Source: a virus (taxonomy: Duplodnaviria > Heunggongvirae > Uroviricota > Caudoviricetes). From it: DNA of 9,401 bases. A program made the translations under genes and the position numbers. Below, one piece after another: positions 1-9,401 of this stretch. The stretch covers positions 1-9,401 of the IMG/VR virus record IMGVR_UViG_2537561618_000016; one strand, 5' to 3'. Every line of letters begins with the position of its first letter. Position 1 is the first letter of the stretch. Under the pieces are notes generated by a model. It searched no databases. It saw only the letters and a list, made by a program, of their open reading frames with translations, and was not told the DNA's origin.

Positions 1-554
1 TCAAACGCCCCGAATTGAAGCCAAATCATCCAGACCGCTCGGCTCCTCTTTCATTTCACGCTGACGGCGATAAATCTCGTCGTTGCGATCGACCTGCGCC
101 TGCACCATTGCTGCCGCCAGTTCTTCCAGTTCCGGCATCGACAGTTTCACCTGCTGATTATCGGCATCGCTCCACGCCATATGTGTTTGTGCTGTGACAG
201 ATTTTGCCAGCATGACTACCGGGGACAGGCGGCCCAGTGAGTCGGGGCCAGCATTCCAGATACGACCGTTCCATTCAAACGTGAACGGCTTCGCCTCCTG
301 TTCTGCGCGCCATGCTTCAATTTCCTGACGTCTGGCCTCTCTGGCCGCTTCCAGCATTTCTGGTGTCACAGTGAATGGGGCTATCTCACCCCATTTGCCA
401 CTTTGCAGTTCCTGCCAGATTTGCTGACCCGTCGGTGCGACATCATCAGCGGTGGCTGTGTAGGGGACTGCCTGGTCCCTGTCGTCAAAAAAACGTCACA
501 GTCTACTGCGCCACTTTCGGTATAACGGGGATTAATGATTTTTTTAATTTCCAC
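1..554 (-). pseudogene. Putative tail fibre assembly/chaperone protein of the second fibre cassette (DUF4376-like C-terminal domain), frameshifted as sequenced: N-terminal segment 497-554, C-terminal segment 1-495
   Basis: Minus-strand ORF 1-369 extends open to 495 in the same frame, with stop at 1-3. Its sequence (FEWNGRIWNAGPDS...WSDADNQQVKLSMPELEELAAAMVQAQ) fits the DUF4376 pattern seen in phage tail fibre assembly proteins. An upstream ORF in another frame (...TVEIKKIINPRYTESGAVDCDVF) joins it across a 7-A run at 487-493; one extra base would give a continuous ~184 aa protein. A GAGGA Shine-Dalgarno (562-566) sits 7 nt before a GTG at 554. It lies directly downstream of a tail fibre gene. 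Confidence 0.55.
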
Positions 555-561
555 GGTGCAT

Positions 562-566
562 TCCTC
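562..566 (-). promoter_or_regulatory. Shine-Dalgarno (GAGGA) for the second chaperone gene, 7 nt upstream of GTG start at 554
   Basis: Plus-strand tcctc at 562-566 is GAGGA on the coding strand, followed by a 7-nt spacer and GTG. Confidence 0.4.
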
Positions 567-692
567 ACGATGTGCGAATAAAAAGCCCGGGCATTGCGCC
601 AGAGACATGTGCATCCGGCACCCCGGACAGGGCGCAATATGACCCCGGTAATGAATGCTCTGAACATCCCGTAATGAAAAATTGTGGGGATA

Positions 693-1979
693 CTATATAC
701 GTTCCGGTGGGAGTACTGGGCACTGAAATCCCCACCGGTCCCAGTCGTGAGCCTCTGTATGACTGCCCCCTGACAAGTCTGATGACTTTATCACCGTCAG
801 CTTCTCCTGGTACGCAGCAATAATCAGCCCGCCAATGTCAGGGTCTCCCCATCTGTTGCGGACAGAGCTCGCCACGATTCTGTAAATAATATCTTCTGTG
901 GTTATATTTATTTTCACCCAGCCAGTCAGTCTGGATATGGGCCAGTAGCAGTAGCGGGTGTGATAAATGGGGCCGTTAATGCCGTAAAAAGTAAGGGATT
1001 TGGCTCTGTACCGCGGTTCTGTTGTCTCAGGGCGTGCATCAGTCCACCGGATGCTGAGCACCCCTTCAAACCGTGTGTCGGGTATGATGATGCCGTAAGG
1101 GCCAGCAACGGAATATTCACCTGGCAGCGCATTCCTTACCCAGGCCAGGAAATCACTCTTAGTGTCAAAACGGATAACATCTTCAGGCAGAAAAGCACAC
1201 CCAAAGCCGAATGCGCCGGGTATCGCCAGACGGCCTTTTGTCCGGTCGTAAATGTCGCTCTGTGCTTCCATCGTGGCCGCACTTTTCAGCCCCAGATTAT
1301 CCCGGGACTTCTGTTGTGCCTTTTCGCCTGCTGCTGCGATTTCAGACAGATGGTTAGCCGTTTTCAGAGTGCCGGTCAGCGCAGCATCAATGTCATTTTT
1401 GGCCTGCTCTGCTGCGCGGGCATAACCTGCGGCATCCTGTGCGCTCTGTCCGGCTGCGGCTGCATTTGCTCCTGTGCTTGTCACATCTTCCGCAGTGGCC
1501 TTTCTGTCCTCAGCTGTGACGGTTGCATCCTGTCGGGCTTTCTCCGCAAAACGTTGTGCATCATCACGGGCCGTTGCGGCTGCCGCCACATCCTGCGCCG
1601 TCTGCTGTGCGTTTCCGGCTGCGGCCCCGGCGCTCTGCTGCGCCTGCGCCACCATTTCCTCAAAGCGTTTGACGACATCCGGTTTCAGGTCGCCCTCATC
1701 AGGAGCAATCAGAAAGTCATTCAGCGTGCCGGGCTTTGAGTCCTCATATACAGCAATGTCGCCAACGTTGTACTCGTTGCGCCAGTCCTGTTTCAGATAC
1801 ACACCATATTTTCCAGTCCGCGCATGGAAACAGTATTCACCATCGTTTCCTGTCATCACATCAGCAACAGTGTTCATCACCACTTCCGGGGTGTTTACCC
1901 GGGATTTCAGAATAATATGGTATCCGGACATGGGGATACCTGCGCCATCAGTCAGCGCACCTGATATCACTACAGACAT
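693..1979 (-). CDS. Tail fibre protein (428 aa) with lambda Stf-like N-terminal anchor domain and Ala/Gln-rich shaft
   Basis: The N-terminus MSVVISGALTDGAG...VYEDSKPGTLNDFL closely follows the conserved N-terminus of lambda Stf and lambdoid prophage side tail fibres (MAVKISGVLKDG...TVYEDSQPGTLNDFL, from memory), followed by a low-complexity Ala-rich region. ATG at 1979 lies 23 nt after the upstream chaperone stop; stop TAG at 693-695. Confidence 0.8.
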   Translation of the reverse strand: MSVVISGALTDGAGIPMSGYHIILKSRVNTPEVVMNTVADVMTGNDGEYCFHARTGKYGVYLKQDWRNEYNVGDIAVYEDSKPGTLNDFLIAPDEGDLKPDVVKRFEEMVAQAQQSAGAAAGNAQQTAQDVAAAATARDDAQRFAEKARQDATVTAEDRKATAEDVTSTGANAAAAGQSAQDAAGYARAAEQAKNDIDAALTGTLKTANHLSEIAAAGEKAQQKSRDNLGLKSAATMEAQSDIYDRTKGRLAIPGAFGFGCAFLPEDVIRFDTKSDFLAWVRNALPGEYSVAGPYGIIIPDTRFEGVLSIRWTDARPETTEPRYRAKSLTFYGINGPIYHTRYCYWPISRLTGWVKINITTEDIIYRIVASSVRNRWGDPDIGGLIIAAYQEKLTVIKSSDLSGGSHTEAHDWDRWGFQCPVLPPERI

Positions 1980-2002
1980 TGTTTTTCTCGCGATAAATTA
2001 AA

Positions 2003-2547
2003 TCAGGAAGAACCTTCCGGAGAGGCGGGCCATTCAATGGCGTTGTATGAGGATTTATCAGTGATGGTGCTGAAATCCATCGCCTGCAGCGATTTCGCGT
2101 AAATACGACAGGCTTTCAGCTTTTCTTTATCTTCGTCGCTGATTAACCCCAGCAGCAGGTCTTCTTCCCATTCCCCTGTCCGGGCACTGACCTGAGCCAG
2201 AAGGGCATCACGCTCATCTTCCGCTTTGAGTCTGTAGTCAAAGACAAATTCATCATTGCGGTAAAACCAGTAACCCGGCGCGGTAATCCGTCGGTTAGTG
2301 GTAATATCCGGAACTTCGATAACGCTGGCATTGCGTGGCTCGATGCCTGTCACATCCTTACCGACCCACACCACGCGACCATCTCCGGTGTAAGCTATTT
2401 TTATTGTGTCGCTGGCGAAATTCTTCAGCTCTTCATACCAGTTTTTCCGTCTTCTGAAAAAAGCCAGGTGACCGAATATCGTTTTGTCATCTGATATTGT
2501 TCTGCTGTTTTCGGATTACCCGCAGTAATATTTTTTAAATGCAACAT
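2003..2547 (-). pseudogene. Tail fibre assembly protein (lambda Tfa / e14 TfaE family), frameshifted as sequenced at a 5-T run (plus 2442-2446)
   Basis: ATG at 2547-2545 encodes [35 protein letters not shown], matching the canonical Tfa N-terminus ([19 protein letters not shown]...YTEDGKNWYEE). After the A5 run the Tfa sequence continues in the -1 frame (NWYEELKNF...SVIEVPDITTNRR...ISDEDKEKLKACRIYAKSL...IEWPASPE) to the stop at 2003-2005. One extra A restores a ~181 aa protein. The start is 2 nt after the fibre stop, suggesting translational coupling. Confidence 0.85.
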
Positions 2548-3035
2548 TGTTAAATACTCGCTACGTTATACCAGGTGCCATTAATCAGTTTTTGCAGTGG
2601 TCGGTAATACACACCGTCAACGTTATCCGCTGAGTTACGGCCGGTATCCGATATCGCCATCCCTGACAGCCCGTGTCCCGAAGGTGCGCAAAATCTCCAC
2701 GAAACGGTGTTACTGCCGGGGCTGTAATACATTTCATGGCCATACCGTACATCCTGTACCCCCTCTGTTCGATATTTATAGCGGGCATCGAAGTTTCCGT
2801 AATTTAACGGAATTACCTGTCCGTTAACAGTGAACACTATGCTGTTATCCGGGTTTCTCTGGCTGAAAAAATGCCAGCCTGAATCATCACCAAGCTCTGC
2901 AACAACAGGCCTGGATGGATTACCCCACAAATAAAACGCTGCATTTTTCGTGGAGTTGTTGGCGCTGGATAACGTGAATTTTCTGGCAGTTCCGGCCTGA
3001 ATATTCTTAAAAGCAATAGCCACTCCATTCTGAAA

Positions 3036-3040
3036 GCGGA
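3036..3040. repeat. IS2 target site duplication, left copy (GCGGA)
   Basis: Identical 5-mer gcgga immediately flanks both IS2 ends (3036-3040 and 4372-4376); IS2 makes 5-bp duplications. Confidence 0.85.
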
Positions 3041-3081
3041 TAGACTGGCCCCCTGAATCTCCAGACAACCAGTATCACTTA
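3041..3081. repeat. IS2 left terminal inverted repeat (approx. 41 bp, imperfect)
   Basis: Aligned by eye against the reverse complement of 4331-4371; shared TCCAGACA and TATCACTTA blocks with one gap. Confidence 0.7.
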
Positions 3082-3131
3082 TTTAAGTGATAGTCTTAAT
3101 ACTAGTTTTTAGACTAGTCATTGGAGAACAG

Positions 3132-3497
3132 ATGATTGATGTCTTAGGGCCGGAGAAACGCAGACGGCGTACCACACAGGAAAAGATCGCAATTGTTCAG
3201 CAGAGCTTTGAACCGGGGATGACGGTCTCCCTCGTTGCCCGGCAACATGGTGTAGCAGCCAGCCAGTTATTTCTCTGGCGTAAGCAATACCAGGAAGGAA
3301 GTCTTACTGCTGTGGCCGCCGGAGAACAGGTTGTTCCTGCCTCTGAACTTGCTGCCGCCATGAAGCAGATTAAAGAACTCCAGCGCCTGCTCGGCAAGAA
3401 AACGATGGAAAATGAACTCCTCAAAGAAGCCGTTGAATATGGACGGGCAAAAAAGTGGATAGCGCACGCGCCCTTATTGCCCGGGGATGGGGAGTAA
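3132..3497 (+). CDS. insC: IS2 transposase OrfA (InsC), 121 aa
   Basis: [56 protein letters not shown]... matches IS2 InsC. GGAGA Shine-Dalgarno at 3123-3127 precedes ATG 3132; the ORF-track start at 3087 is an upstream extension. Confidence 0.9.
3449..3455 (+). other. IS2 programmed -1 ribosomal frameshift heptamer A AAA AAG (makes the InsCD fusion transposase)
   Basis: The heptamer is in the insC zero frame (gca aaa aag tgg); the insD frame is -1 and open from this point. Confidence 0.8.
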
Positions 3498-4360
3498 GCT
3501 TAGTCAGCCGTTGTCTCCGGGTGTCGCGTGCGCAGTTGCACGTCATTCTCAGACGAACCGATGACTGGATGGATGGCCGCCGCAGTCGTCACACTGATGA
3601 TACGGATGTGCTTCTCCGTATACACCATGTTATCGGAGAGCTGCCCACGTATGGTTATCGTCGGGTATGGGCGCTGCTTCGCAGACAGGCAGAACTTGAT
3701 GGTATGCCTGCGATCAATGCCAAACGTGTTTACCGGCTCATGCGCCAGAATGCGCTGTTGCTTGAGCGAAAACCTGCTGTACCGCCATCGAAACGGGCAC
3801 ATACAGGCAGAGTGGCCGTGAAAGAAAGCAATCAGCGATGGTGCTCTGACGGGTTCGAGTTCTGCTGTGATAACGGAGAGAGACTGCGTGTCACGTTCGC
3901 GCTGGACTGCTGTGATCGTGAGGCACTGCACTGGGCGGTGACTACCGGCGGCTTCAACAGTGAAACAGTACAGGACGTCATGCTGGGAGCGGTGGAACGC
4001 CGCTTCGGCAACGATCTTCCGTCGTCTCCAGTGGAGTGGCTGACGGATAATGGTTCATGCTACCGGGCTAATGAAACACGCCAGTTCGCCCGGATGTTGG
4101 GACTTGAACCGAAGAACACGGCGGTGCGGAGTCCGGAGAGTAACGGAATAGCAGAGAGCTTCGTGAAAACGATAAAGCGTGACTACATCAGTATCATGCC
4201 CAAACCAGACGGGTTAACGGCAGCAAAGAACCTTGCAGAGGCGTTCGAGCATTATAACGAATGGCATCCGCATAGTGCGCTGGGTTATCGCTCGCCACGG
4301 GAATATCTGCGGCAGCGGGCTTGTAATGGGTTAAGTGATAACAGATGTCTGGAAATATAG
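3455..4360 (+). CDS. insD: IS2 transposase OrfB (InsD), DDE catalytic domain, 301 aa; expressed as InsCD fusion by -1 frameshift
   Basis: The 301-aa ORF in the -1 frame relative to insC matches IS2 InsD (...[42 protein letters not shown]...). Confidence 0.9.
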
Positions 4361-4371
4361 GGGCAAATCCA
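4331..4371. repeat. IS2 right terminal inverted repeat (approx. 41 bp, imperfect)
   Basis: The reverse complement TGGATTTGCCCCTATATTTCCAGACATCTGTTATCACTTA aligns with the left end. Confidence 0.7.
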
Positions 4372-4376
4372 GCGGA
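4372..4376. repeat. IS2 target site duplication, right copy (GCGGA)
   Basis: See the left copy at 3036-3040. Confidence 0.85.
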
Positions 4377-5257
4377 ATACACGCTGACTATTAGCATAAA
4401 CATCCAGAATACCGTCTCCATTCTGTTTAAATCCGGTGTCATTATCACCAAGAACAATTGAATTCCCCCCCAGGGCGTTCTGAACGCCGATACCCAGCGC
4501 ACCATTGACCTGCGAACCACCGCCAACAGACACTTTATGCGACATGGATATTTCACCCGTCCGCAAATTAATGGTGAACGGGCGCAGGGGACCAATATCG
4601 CCATTTTCCCCCTGACCTTCACTGGTGGGAATAAGGTGCAGGCACTCTTCCGAACGACGAAAAATCAGGCCAAAAGCTTCGTTGAAAATCCTCAGCGCAT
4701 TAACACCACGGATTTTCAGCTCTCCGGTTATTTTATCGCCTTCCCGATGAACATAGCGTTGATCTGACTGCTCTTTACTGTAAACCTGAAGATTATCCCG
4801 TGCCGTCCCTTTATTCTGAAGGTCTGACAGATTGTTCTTCTGCCGCAGGAATATCCTTTTCGGATCCTCAAGAAGATTTACCCAGCCCGCACTGTCGGAG
4901 CCTTCAGGATCGGTCAGGTTATCGTCCGTGGTATTCAGCCAGACCGCTGTTGTTGCGACTCCGGCGAGAATGGCTCCTTTTGCATATCCACCAATGGCCC
5001 CCGCAAAACCGGCATTATACGTGTACAAACCGCCAGCCTGGGCGAACCGTATTGCTGCGGTAATATCGTACATCAGACCGTTAAAATCCTTGCCGTGTGG
5101 CGGTATACCTCCCGCTGAGACCGCTGTCATGGTCACCGGAGGAAAACCTGAATCATACGCAGCATTACCGCTCTCTCTGGTCTGCTGTGTCGCCTTGTCC
5201 GGGATACGGTTTTTATCTCCGGTACTCGCAAAGGGGACCGCCAGCTGGCGGGGTTTA

Positions 5258-5863
5258 TCACTGGCCTTCATTACGGGACTCCTTTAAAACTACTGAAACA
5301 TAAACACCCGGCGGGGATGGCAGTGCACCCGACGACTGGATAATCGCCAGTTCTGCCAACGAGAGCGCGGACTCAAAGACGTAACTCATCCTCAGCCCGC
5401 CATTATTCAGAACATAAGCCCGGCGTTTTTTTCCGAACATAAATCTCAGCATCAGGTTAATATCCGGAACGGAACAGTCAGTAATGTTCGACATGGCTTT
5501 CATCAGTATCAGCCGCCAGTATACAGCATCAGACAGGTCAACAGTCCGGGTATCCGATTTTCCGTTGTAAAACGGTGCCTGATTAAACGGACAGGGATCA
5601 TCCATTACCGGGGTGTCCATCCTGGACTCGCTGAAGCCCAGGTAATTAAAATCGTCCTTTACCGTCAGCCAGCAACTGACACCCACAATCTTTCCCCAGA
5701 CATCAAGACCATACTTTTCTGCGGTATCGATGTTCCAGATAAGACCATAAAAATCACTGATAAAACTGTCGGGGGAAAGCGCTGCGTTAAAGCTGTTAAT
5801 GAGGGCATTGAGTCGGGGGCTGGCAGCATACTGCGCAAGCACAGTGGCAGCCACATTCTGCAC
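5258..5863 (-). CDS. Phage tail/baseplate-associated protein in the gpI (P2) / gp48 (Mu) / YmfQ (e14) position, 201 aa
   Basis: Intact ORF with GTG start at 5863 preceded by a GGAGG Shine-Dalgarno (5871-5875), 1 nt after the upstream stop. Its 3' end overlaps the fibre start by 14 nt. It sits between a J-like gene and the tail fibre, as in the P2 J-I-H-G and Mu gp47-gp48-S-U order. The family assignment is by synteny and size, not a confident sequence match. Confidence 0.6.
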
Positions 5864-5864
5864 G

Positions 5865-6566
5865 TTATGCCTCCTGGAGTTTCACACTGATATCCGACAC
5901 ATCCAGAACCGGAATCTCATCTATCCCGAAAGTGACAGCCGTTGTCCATGACGAACCATCACGGCTCACAGTAAGGCCCAGAATATCAATATGTTCCGGA
6001 TCGGTTTTGTAAATGCCGGCATAGTAGCGCCCGGCAGAGACAACAGAGGCAACTCTTGCCCGCAGACCACCATCTGTACCATTAAATGCGTCCAGCACGG
6101 ATTGCTGTACCTGTCGGGTAATATCTGAAGGCAGGTAGTCACTTTTTTTCAGCGTCACACTGACATGCAGACTGACGGGTTTGAGTGTCTGCCAGCTGAT
6201 CACGTATTCAGGATACGGCGGATCGTACTCCTTATCTGCAACAGTGAACGTTGTGTTGCCATTCATATCAATACCCGGCGGAGCCTTACGCCAGATGGCC
6301 GCCGCGATATCTGCCGGGCTGCCGCCGTACACGCCAACATAAAGCGAACCGGGTGTTAATGGATACTGACTGACTCCGGCTTTTTGTTCTGTTTTTTTCG
6401 GATTATGGGTGACGTAAACATCCACCACGTTTTCTACCGTGGAGAGTATTTCACCCCGGATGGCTTCCAGAATATTCCGGGCATTACGGGCAACTGAATT
6501 ACGTCGGCGGTTTTCAAAGTCCGCACGGGTTTCCTCATCGCTGCCCGGCACACCGGCACGGGCGTT
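5865..6566 (-). pseudogene. Baseplate assembly protein J-like (P2 gpJ / Mu gp47 position), 5'-truncated at the IS600-like element
   Basis: The reading frame is open from the IS boundary (6566) to the stop at 5865-5867 (233 codons), with no credible start or Shine-Dalgarno. It is immediately upstream of the gpI-like gene. The J-family assignment is by synteny only. Confidence 0.5.
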
Positions 6567-6630
6567 TGAGGTAGCCTGAGTTTAACGGACACTCCTTCCT
6601 GAAATAGAATGGCATCAGAAGGAGCTAATA

Positions 6631-6918
6631 ATGAGCAGAAAAACCCAACGTTACTCTAAAGAGTTCAAAGCCGAAGCTGTCAGAACGGTTCTTGAAAATC
6701 AACTTTCGATCAGTGAAGGCGCTTCCCGATTATCTCTTCCTGAAGGCACTTTAGGACAATGGGTTACCGCCGCCAGAAAAGGGCTCGGTACTCCTGGTTC
6801 CCGCACGGTGGCTGAACTGGAATCTGAAATTCTGCAACTGCGTAAGGCGTTAAATGAAGCTCGCCTTGAGCGAGATATATTAAAAAAGCAACAGCGTATT
6901 TTGCACAGGAGTCACTGA
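6631..6918 (+). CDS. IS600-like transposase OrfA (HTH DNA-binding), 95 aa as sequenced
   Basis: MSRKTQRYSKEFKAEAVRTVLENQLSISEGASRLSLPEGTLGQWV...LERDILKK is an IS3-family OrfA. The C-terminal tail KQQRILHRSH looks aberrant; the -1 frame gives the expected ATAYFAQESLKNTR ending. Confidence 0.85.
   Translation: MSRKTQRYSKEFKAEAVRTVLENQLSISEGASRLSLPEGTLGQWVTAARKGLGTPGSRTVAELESEILQLRKALNEARLERDILKKQQRILHRSH
6882..6888 (+). other. A AAA AAG slippery heptamer of IS600-like orfA (A6 tract); orfB frame opens here but is +1, not -1, to orfA
   Basis: Codons tta aaa aag are in the orfA frame; the orfB frame (KSNSVFCTGVTEKYALIEQWRQQFPIEVMCQVF...) is open from 6884. Confidence 0.6.
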
Positions 6919-6964
6919 AAAATACGCGTTAATCGAACAATGGCGACAACAATTTCCCATTGAA

Positions 6965-7786
6965 GTGATGTGTCAGGTATTTGGTGTATCCAGGAGCGGT
7001 TATTACAACTGGGTACAGCATGAACCCTCAGACAGAAAACAAAGTGATGAGCGGCTAAAACTGGAGATTAAGGTGGCACATATCCGCACTCGCGAAACAT
7101 ATGGAACCCGGCGGCTCCAGACGGAGCTGGCAGAGAATGGCATCATCGTTGGTCGTGACCGACTGGCACGTCTTCGTAAGGAGCTGAGGCTACGCTGTAA
7201 GCAGAAACGCAAGTTCAGAGCGACTACGAACCCGAACCACAATCTGCCAGTTGCGCCAAATCTGCTGAACCAGACGTTCGCTCCTACAGCACCAAATCAA
7301 GTCTGGGTGGCGGACCTGACGTATGTTGCCACACAGGAAGGATGGTTGTACCTCGCTGGCATCAAAGATGTTTATACGTGCGAAATTGTCGGCTACGCCA
7401 TGGGAGAGCGCATGACAAAAGAGCTGACAGGTAAAGCCCTGTTTATGGCGCTCAGGAGCCAGCGCCCACCTGCCGGGCTAATCCACCACTCTGATCGAGG
7501 TTCACAGTACTGCGCATACGATTACCGGGTCATACAGGAGCAGTTTGGTCTGAAAACATCAATGTCGCGTAAAGGTAACTGTTACGACAACGCTCCGATG
7601 GAAAGCTTCTGGGGAACGCTGAAAAATGAGAGCCTGAGCCACTATCGTTTTAATAACCGGGATGAAGCCATCTCAGTAATACGGGAATACATTGAGATTT
7701 TCTACAATCGTCAGCGTCGTCACTCTCGTCTGGGGAATATCTCCCCGGCAGCCTTCAGGGAAAAACATCATCAGATGGCTGCTTAA
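6965..7786 (+). CDS. IS600-like transposase OrfB (DDE integrase-type catalytic domain), 273 aa from the first in-frame start; frame open from 6884
   Basis: IS3-family OrfB hallmarks: SRSGYYNW, WVADLTY, HSDRGSQY, NAPMESFWGTLK, YNRQRRHS. Confidence 0.85.
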   Translation: MMCQVFGVSRSGYYNWVQHEPSDRKQSDERLKLEIKVAHIRTRETYGTRRLQTELAENGIIVGRDRLARLRKELRLRCKQKRKFRATTNPNHNLPVAPNLLNQTFAPTAPNQVWVADLTYVATQEGWLYLAGIKDVYTCEIVGYAMGERMTKELTGKALFMALRSQRPPAGLIHHSDRGSQYCAYDYRVIQEQFGLKTSMSRKGNCYDNAPMESFWGTLKNESLSHYRFNNRDEAISVIREYIEIFYNRQRRHSRLGNISPAAFREKHHQMAA

Positions 7787-7829
7787 AAAAAGAACAAATG
7801 GTAGTGTCCGCTATTGCCAGTACACCTCA

Positions 7830-8926
7830 TTTTACAGCCCCGTCCGGGCTGTATGTTTTCACCAGCTTATCCAGTGATCGTTTTGAAAATGGCTGCATTG
7901 GATCACGTGGCTGCAAAAATACATAATCCCTGTTGCACTCAGGAACTGAATCACGCCAGGCTTTCTGCTCGTCGATAATCCGCCGGATCTCAGGCGTTAT
8001 CGGCAGGCGGAAAGCCTTTTGTGTTTTCATAGCCCCTCGCATGCCGATAACCCCTTCCGGATAAACAATTTCACCAGCCTCCTCGTAAACGTAGTCCCAG
8101 CGCAGGTTATGGACATTAATCGGACGAACACCAGTGATGATCATGAAGCGAACAGCATTCTTCTGGTGTACAGAGGTGCAGGCAGCAACATTGAGCCAGA
8201 GTCGGGCGATTGATTCAATATCGGTAAAAAGCCGTGTGGGGGTAGGTTTCTGTACGCGGGAGGAAACATAATCATCTGGCAGACTGGCGGCAACATTGCG
8301 GCCGTTGCAAAGAGTAGGTGCGCAGAACTTCCAGAACCGACGGAGCTCGGCAAACAACTCCAGGGCGTTATTGTTCGAGCGAGTGGCGATCCACTCGTCC
8401 AGCACTTCCACCAGCCGATTGTATGTTACGTCGCTGAACACCTCACGCTCGCCGAACGTTGCTTTAATCCGGTCGATACGCACCCCGTAGGTTGTGAAAC
8501 TGTCCGGGCTCAGCTTCTGCCGGGCTACTTTGGCTTTGGGTCATCCCGGTACATTTCCAGCGCTGCATGTACGGACTCTGCCCGCAGTCCACCGTCAGCC
8601 ATACCTAGTGCTTTTTCGCGCGCCAGCTGGATAACGAGCTCCGGCCACTCGCCGAGCTTTTTACCTTTGAGGCCCATCTTTTTTGGAAACTCGGCGTAAA
8701 ATGTAACCTTACCGGCTTTGCTGAAATCGATACGGAGATAGTTCTCTTTTTCGTATTTGGAACGGCGAGCCACGCCGGAAGCAGCGAGGATGATTTTGGC
8801 GGCAGCAACACAGATTTTCATGTGTGCGCTGGTATAGGGGGGTTTACAGGCGTCCCATTTTTCAGATGCGGCTAAAACATCGTCATTATTGGGGCTATCC
8901 GGATTATGTGTTACAGTGCGCGGCAT
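7830..8926 (-). pseudogene. Phage integrase (tyrosine recombinase, P4-type with arm-binding N-terminal domain), frameshifted near 8529-8537 and 3'-truncated by the IS600-like element
   Basis: ATG at 8926 with AAGGA Shine-Dalgarno. The N-terminal segment (...KVTFYAEFPKKMGLKGKKLGEWPELVIQLAREKA...) resembles the P4-type arm-binding domain and stops at 8525. The downstream segment continues in the -1 frame from 8540 and carries box I (ITGVRPINVHNLRWDYV) and the lysine hairpin (MKTQKAFRLPITPEI). The frame runs into the IS terminus at 7829, and the catalytic H-x-x-R and Tyr regions are absent. Confidence 0.75.
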
Positions 8927-9131
8927 TCTCAATCCTTATCTGCGTAGGCGCAGAAAACAAGCTCACACATACAAGTCTTTTCTACGGGACAAAATGCAAT
9001 GTGTTGCGGTTTTGTGTTGCTGGACTGAGTTTATCAAGGTTAAATACACTGGATCAACATACAGTAAGTTAATGACAGTAAAGCATACAAACTCGATACA
9101 ACTTACTGATTTTAAAATGATTTAACGGTAA

Positions 9132-9401
<270 letters not shown>

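Follow-up and report, generated by a model that had tools for sequence, protein, structure and literature searches.

The 9,401-nucleotide stretch analyzed here, positions 1 to 9,401 of the IMG/VR record IMGVR_UViG_2537561618_000016 (referred to as the window), comes from a decayed prophage of Shigella flexneri, an ipaH island integrated in the 5' end of yfhL, and covers its right-hand part. A single copy of the insertion sequence (IS) IS600 now stands in place of about 38–41 kb of this prophage. The lost stretch begins at codon 180 of the baseplate gene J, takes in the tail, head, packaging, lysis, regulation, and replication genes, and ends at codon 367 of the integrase gene (int). We read the joint as an IS600-anchored internal deletion of a single prophage, with a probability of roughly 0.85, because one IS lies between two unrelated parental flanks while the remaining genes keep their native order and orientation and both att ends are intact. 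Exact-protein look-ups placed the window in S. flexneri, where the whole island lies between yfhH and yfhL and is about 12.3 kb long. From left to right on the plus strand, the window holds tail-fiber genes (one of them split by IS2), a DUF2612 gene, the J remnant, IS600, the int remnant, and yfhL. The coordinates are listed in Table 1.

Table 1. Features at and around the IS600 joint in the window
Feature	Coordinates	Strand	Evidence
Baseplate J/gp47 3' remnant, residues 181–413 of 413	5865..6566	-	Open frame to IS end; identity to intact J
Left flank GTT, last J-derived bases	6564..6566	.	Intact J GGCGTT/AGTGAC in L002 and VL40
IS600 (IS3 family), 1263 bp	6567..7829	+	About 99% identity to annotated copies, inverted repeats, length, Pfam
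Right flank TTT, first int-derived bases	7830..7832	.	Intact int TTATTCC/TTTTACAG in IAI1 and VL40
Tyrosine-integrase pseudogene, codons 1–366 of 465	7830..8926	-	Comparison with intact IAI1 homologue; Pfam
yfhL (4Fe-4S ferredoxin), chromosomal, bounds the island	9141..9401	+	Annotated yfhL in IAI1, K-12, and VL40
attR core AATTGTGATATGTGTGAA (18 bp) within the yfhL 5' end	9171..9188	.	Comparison with the empty K-12 site and attL/attR of IAI1 and S. flexneri L014

A preliminary description, made from the letters of the window alone, had called the element IS600-like. It does belong to the IS3 family, but it is IS600 itself, with 98.6–99.3% nucleotide identity to copies annotated as "IS3-like element IS600 family transposase", which occur in thousands of places in a set of 5,426 complete Escherichia coli genomes. 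The left inverted repeat runs inward from 6567 (TGAGGTAGCC...) and the right one extends up to 7829 (...GTACACCTCA), with termini TGAGG...CCTCA. A manual alignment showed that the two repeats are imperfect, and an inverted-repeat program returned no match at the IS600 ends since they are too imperfect for its 9-nt seed. Within the element, orfA (6631–6918) matches the Pfam family HTH_Tnp_1 and orfB (approximately 6965–7786) gives matches to rve. The copy shares with the IS600 family its length, the TG...CA ends, orfA and orfB with what may be the A-run frameshift site, and nucleotide identity, and it differs by the absence of a 3-bp target duplication and by a shorter A-run. Other copies are 1264 bp long, and the difference is one A of the slippery run near 6882: there are six A's here (approximately 6877–6882) compared to seven in the 12 other copies where the pattern was found. 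With six A's as written, orfB would be out of the -1 frame, which would block OrfAB synthesis and leave the copy transposition-dead, if the shorter run is real. The six-A run may also be a sequencing error of the draft source, AFHC01000047.1.

The bases next to the element were compared with the intact genes. The window reads GGCGTT/IS600/TTTTACAG, homology to intact J and int ends exactly at the IS ends, and every flank base is parental. Since the GTT belongs to J and the TTT to int, there is no target-site duplication. The preliminary description had reached the same view of the flanks, and no 3-bp duplication emerged when the IS ends were set against other IS600 copies. Four control copies of IS600 all carry perfect 3-bp duplications (ATG, TCT, GTT, and CCC). 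A fifth copy, in enteroinvasive E. coli (EIEC) O121 (L001), is also without a duplication and also lies at a truncated prophage. An internal contrast is provided by the 1331-bp IS2 at 3041–4371, which interrupts a tail-fiber gene with a perfect 5-bp GCGGA duplication, as seen after a simple insertion. The J and int frames are in phase across IS600, as had been pointed out before, but this follows from its length (1263 = 3 × 421), has a chance of 1 in 3, and is meaningless.

On the left side of IS600, the J frame is open on the minus strand from 6566 to its stop at 5865, and in the other direction it extends six codons into the element before a stop is met. No start codon is present in this frame upstream of the GTG at 6551, which is the start that gene callers take, and the native start is absent; the earlier reading of a frame open to the IS end and lacking its start was correct. 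The 233 residues of the remnant are 100% identical to residues 181–413 of the 413-aa J/gp47 protein of EIEC CFSAN029787 (L019). The Pfam domain Baseplate_J covers residues 90–241 of intact J, and it is matched by the full-length protein but not by the fragment alone. No close relative of J was found in the phage collection.

On the right side, the integrase gene starts at the ATG at 8926 and not at the TTG at 8932, and it runs into the right end of IS600 as first described, with its stop codon TGA (7829–7827) supplied by the last three bases of the element. An intact homologue of 465 aa lies beside yfhL in E. coli IAI1 and is 99.2% identical at the nucleotide level. Homology to it begins exactly at 7830, so that codons 367–465, or 99 C-terminal residues, are lost. 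The Pfam profile PF00589 scores 30.6 bits (cut-off 27.1) and is matched over positions 14–117 of 172, which holds for the fragment as well as for the intact protein of IAI1. From the sequence, the C-terminal catalytic part, with the Arg/His residues and the Tyr nucleophile (unmatched profile positions 118–172), would fall in the 99 lost residues; the catalytic residues (MCRKF, LHH, and EHYDF) were assigned by eye. The integrase had no sequence relative in the PDB, and its match in the phage collection was only 70% identical (Serratia phage OS31).

Direct evidence for a deletion within one prophage comes from EIEC VL40. This strain has one continuous, nearly complete prophage between yfhL and yfhH, with ipaHb, the same int, and the same tail module (99.3% nucleotide identity). 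Its order is int (broken by IS1 at another position than the S. flexneri int), an IAI1-type early region (SNF2 helicase, DNA polymerase, DUF2800/2815, repressor, primase, and Q), lysis, terminase, head, and tail genes, an intact 413-aa J, DUF2612, fiber genes, and ipaHb. Both S. flexneri breakpoints are uninterrupted in VL40 and lie 41,333 bp apart, or about 38 kb without VL40's own IS1, ISEc11, and IS600 copies. Because both intact breakpoints are held by one prophage at the same yfhH/yfhL site, the S. flexneri joint has a single-prophage origin, and IS600 marks an internal deletion. This bears out the suggestion in the preliminary description that the prophage core from int to the baseplate genes was lost in an IS-associated deletion, by way of either an adjacent deletion or recombination between two IS copies. 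The S. flexneri island keeps both att ends of the prophage. The VL40 prophage (L172, 1–49901, and L173) is itself interrupted by IS1 in int, ISEc11, IS600 in the sheath gene (duplication CCC), and IS2 in the fiber gene. The IS2 of VL40 is in the same fiber gene as that of the window but at a different site (duplication TTTTG), and the two IS2 hits are independent.

A second relative is the 42-kb prophage of IAI1. Like the VL40 prophage (about 52 kb including IS elements), it has in common with the S. flexneri island the yfhL att core, the integrase (98.5–99.2% nucleotide identity), and the gene order and orientation. Both keep the approximately 40 kb between J and int that S. flexneri has lost. 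The IAI1 prophage has another tail and cargo module than the S. flexneri island. The island matches the IAI1 prophage at the same site in its attL and attR cores, in the first 126 nt or so of phage DNA on the attL side, and at the int end; the interior is not shared.

The joint was identical in all the S. flexneri loci that were read (L005–L010, L013–L017, L022, L024, L026, and L034). It is present in the complete chromosomes CP026765, CP026871, CP026776, CP026788, CP130061, CP034931, and CP182556, always in the 12-kb island bounded by yfhH and yfhL, and the junction string also occurs in the chromosome of S. flexneri SFBU1023. Neither S. flexneri junction was found in any of the 5,426 complete E. 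coli genomes, and none showed the two flanks contiguous, one of the two findings that the preliminary description had named as counterevidence to its reading. Two candidate extensions of the IS600 match were examined and rejected. A 13-nt extension into an "integrase" of E. coli 10153 (H69) belongs to an unrelated lambdoid int, and the 3- and 9-nt extensions in O26 strains are explained by a GTT duplication plus chance. The int–IS600 junction specific to S. flexneri was also seen in a 4.44-Mb chromosome labeled Escherichia coli strain ECMA0423 (CP178302.1, L021), which, by this marker, is probably a genome of the S. flexneri lineage.

For the route of the deletion, we somewhat favor recombination between two copies of IS600. 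Two insertions of the same orientation would have occurred, one in J (target GTT) and the other in int (target TTT). Homologous recombination between them would then have excised the interval as a circle, which would have been lost, and a single hybrid IS600 whose flanks do not match would remain. Transposition of IS3-family elements is of the copy-out/paste-in type, via a circle, and does not make adjacent deletions by that process alone, which favors the two-copy route. The route is also favored because S. flexneri is crowded with IS600, one of its two commonest IS elements (PMC4226921), and because this prophage attracts IS elements: IS2 is found in the window, IS1, ISEc11, IS600, and IS2 in VL40, IS1 and IS66 at locus L017, and another IS within the IS600 of L010.

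Several observations weigh against the two-copy route. We found no genome representing an intermediate, in which only int or only J would carry an IS600 flanked by a duplication. Patterns for precursors and for the reciprocal junctions int-3'/IS600 and IS600/J-5' gave 0 matches in IMG/VR and 0 in metagenome contigs, both of which are collections poor in Shigella. The IS600 in the sheath gene of VL40 has the opposite orientation relative to J and, therefore, is not a precursor copy. Also, an adjacent deletion from one IS would leave an equal final structure, and the two-copy route is, thus, a preference and not a demonstration.

Another possible, but less probable, explanation is that a single IS600 inserted in int or J and that its transposase then drove an intramolecular adjacent deletion up to a second breakpoint. 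Such an event could have been helped by a factor of the IS-excision enhancer (IEE) type or could have passed through a tandem IS dimer. Such a deletion would leave a single IS that keeps its old flank on one side and has a new, unrelated one on the other, precisely as observed, and the missing two-copy intermediate also fits. IEE stimulates excision of elements of the IS3 family such as IS600 together with deletion of flanking DNA, and IS600 is a known IEE substrate (PMC9397093). Known deletions between direct IS repeats and IS-adjacent deletions, including those promoted by IEE in E. coli that produce Shiga toxin, share with our case a single IS at the joint of once-distant sequences and unmatched flanks; here we read the mechanism from the scar alone. 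Against the one-copy explanation is the established point that copy-out/paste-in by itself does not yield such deletions. In addition, recombination of direct repeats by RecA offers a simpler route where a genome holds many copies of IS600. The data do not distinguish recombination between two copies from adjacent deletion by one. If true, an adjacent deletion made by the transposase would be unusual for a copy-out/paste-in element of the IS3 family.

Whichever route was taken, the outcome would be a prophage that is unable to excise or lyse, since it lacks the catalytic Tyr domain as well as lysis and structural genes, and the adjacent ipaH effector gene would be fixed in the chromosome. We hold it only tentatively that IS600 made the deletion through its own transposase, perhaps with IEE-like help, and/or that the loss was selected because ipaHb/ipaH2610 became locked in by the removal of excision and lysis functions in one step. 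The comparisons show the element itself, its breakpoints, the missing duplication, the origin from one prophage, and the gap size, whereas the two-copy route and any selective benefit would be our interpretation of the structure.

A very improbable explanation is that the IS600 copies of two different prophages recombined and that the joint marks a chromosomal inversion or translocation. In its favor, the tail module (J and DUF2612) is 99% identical to that of ipaH prophages at other EIEC sites, beside yfaS and sitABCD, the yfhL prophage of IAI1 has a different tail module, and this J and this int do not occur together on any single long contig in IMG/VR. However, the tail/ipaH side of the island ends at a proper attL beside yfhH in native order and orientation, and VL40 joins int, the early genes, the tail module, and ipaHb in one continuous yfhH/yfhL prophage. 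Since VL40 has the full combination, no second locus is needed. A little less credible still is a simple IS600 insertion into an int'-'J joint that already existed, with a duplication later blurred by point mutation. Although GTT and TTT differ at just one of three positions, the flank bases are all parental, which means that a duplicated triplet would need an extra base or a mutation recreating the parental sequence, and the IS-free joint was not found in the 5,426 E. coli genomes. Lastly, an assembly artefact, in which contigs were mis-joined over a multi-copy IS, can practically be dismissed: the source contig AFHC01000047.1 is a draft with single-base indels seen in the window only, but the same joint is present in many independent complete chromosomes, always in the yfhH/yfhL-bounded 12-kb island.

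A further lesion of the int remnant, missed in the preliminary description, is the loss of 1 nt between 8538 and 8539, which splits the remnant into open reading frames (ORFs) of 133 and 218 aa. Other S. flexneri lineages have an unshifted 366-aa allele with the same IS600 end. Therefore, the IS600 joint is older than the frameshift and arose before the two int alleles of S. flexneri diverged. The 133-aa plus 218-aa allele is on 721 contigs (counted by the 218-aa form) and the 366-aa allele is on 391, named S. flexneri, and both of these proteins are specific to the junction; for the 133-aa fragment, the collection has 1,121 indexed blocks. The joint accounts for the fragmentary annotation of the region as a 133-aa plus 218-aa "integrase" and a 228-aa "hypothetical protein". 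The IS600 sequence at this fixed locus differs from that of L005/L014 at seven sites or more (e.g., 6734, 6735, 6873, 6914, 6966, 7222, and 7300) while the flanking DNA is nearly identical, suggesting gene conversion with other IS600 copies.

In complete S. flexneri chromosomes, the order of the whole island is yfhL, int', IS600, 'J, DUF2612, fiber::IS2, tail-fiber assembly (TAP), tail_N, DUF4376, ipaH (608 aa), a pin invertase fragment, and yfhH. The ipaH gene, with LRR_TTSS and NEL domains, lies outside the window, about 180 bp past its left edge, and it was found at all the S. flexneri loci. It is a chromosomal ipaH gene, encoding leucine-rich repeats (LRR) and the NEL E3 ligase, in a phage remnant, as is the case for ipaH islands. 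The same gene is annotated as ipaHb in EIEC, which corresponds to the ipaH2610 class, given as 609 aa (PMC9046306). Like the ipaH islands counted among the conserved features of S. flexneri (PMC4226921), the island of the window is an IS-riddled phage remnant with ipaH just past the tail-fiber genes; there is no essential difference, and it is one of them. We found no paper describing this exact IS600 joint. The numbering and the first description of this island reportedly go back to the genome paper of S. flexneri 2a 301.

Other decayed forms of the same prophage were also seen. A DDE_Tnp_1-family IS lies between the tail-fiber assembly gene and an intact int at locus L030, an IS joins the tail-fiber assembly gene to a truncated DNA polymerase gene at L033, int is cut at 400 aa beside other transposase genes at L028, and the int fragments of S. 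sonnei are cut at other positions. These are independent decays. The deletion described here is routine IS-driven prophage erosion in Shigella, a known and well-documented kind of event that leaves current understanding unchallenged, and the locus occurs in hundreds of strains that have been sequenced. The identification of VL40 as the carrier of a near-complete, ancestor-like ipaHb phage could help to trace the arrival of ipaH effectors in Shigella, as its prophage may be close to the phage that delivered ipaH2610.

The attachment site was revealed by comparison with the empty K-12 site after a short-repeat BLAST search between the island ends found nothing. The core AATTGTGATATGTGTGAA is present at both island ends in S. 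flexneri L014 and in IAI1, while the K-12 site is empty. The comparison with K-12 showed that each end of the island has a diverged copy of 38 bp of the yfhL 5' end, and the 42-kb prophage of IAI1 has the same repeat arrangement. There is no tRNA at the att site in the window; the core lies in yfhL instead. By inserting in the yfhL 5' end, the prophage supplies a new N-terminus (9141–9188; MSLLITKRC... compared to MALLITKKC... in K-12). This hybrid YfhL is a mark of the prophage family and is very common: the collection has 10,582 blocks in which it is indexed.

Single-base indels at 8, 487, 806, and 2442 set the window apart from all other S. flexneri copies. The one at 2442 breaks the 181-aa tail-fiber assembly gene and the one at 806 alters the end of the tail_N gene. 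These four, together with the indel at 6882, look like draft-assembly errors and not biology; the window's own variant maps to the draft contig AFHC01000047.1. The "prophage tail fiber N-terminal" gene has a length polymorphism in its Ala-rich part: most copies from S. flexneri and EIEC lack a 141-nt stretch (1434–1574), which is no tandem repeat and which CP034931 (L026) also has, with a product of 478 aa.

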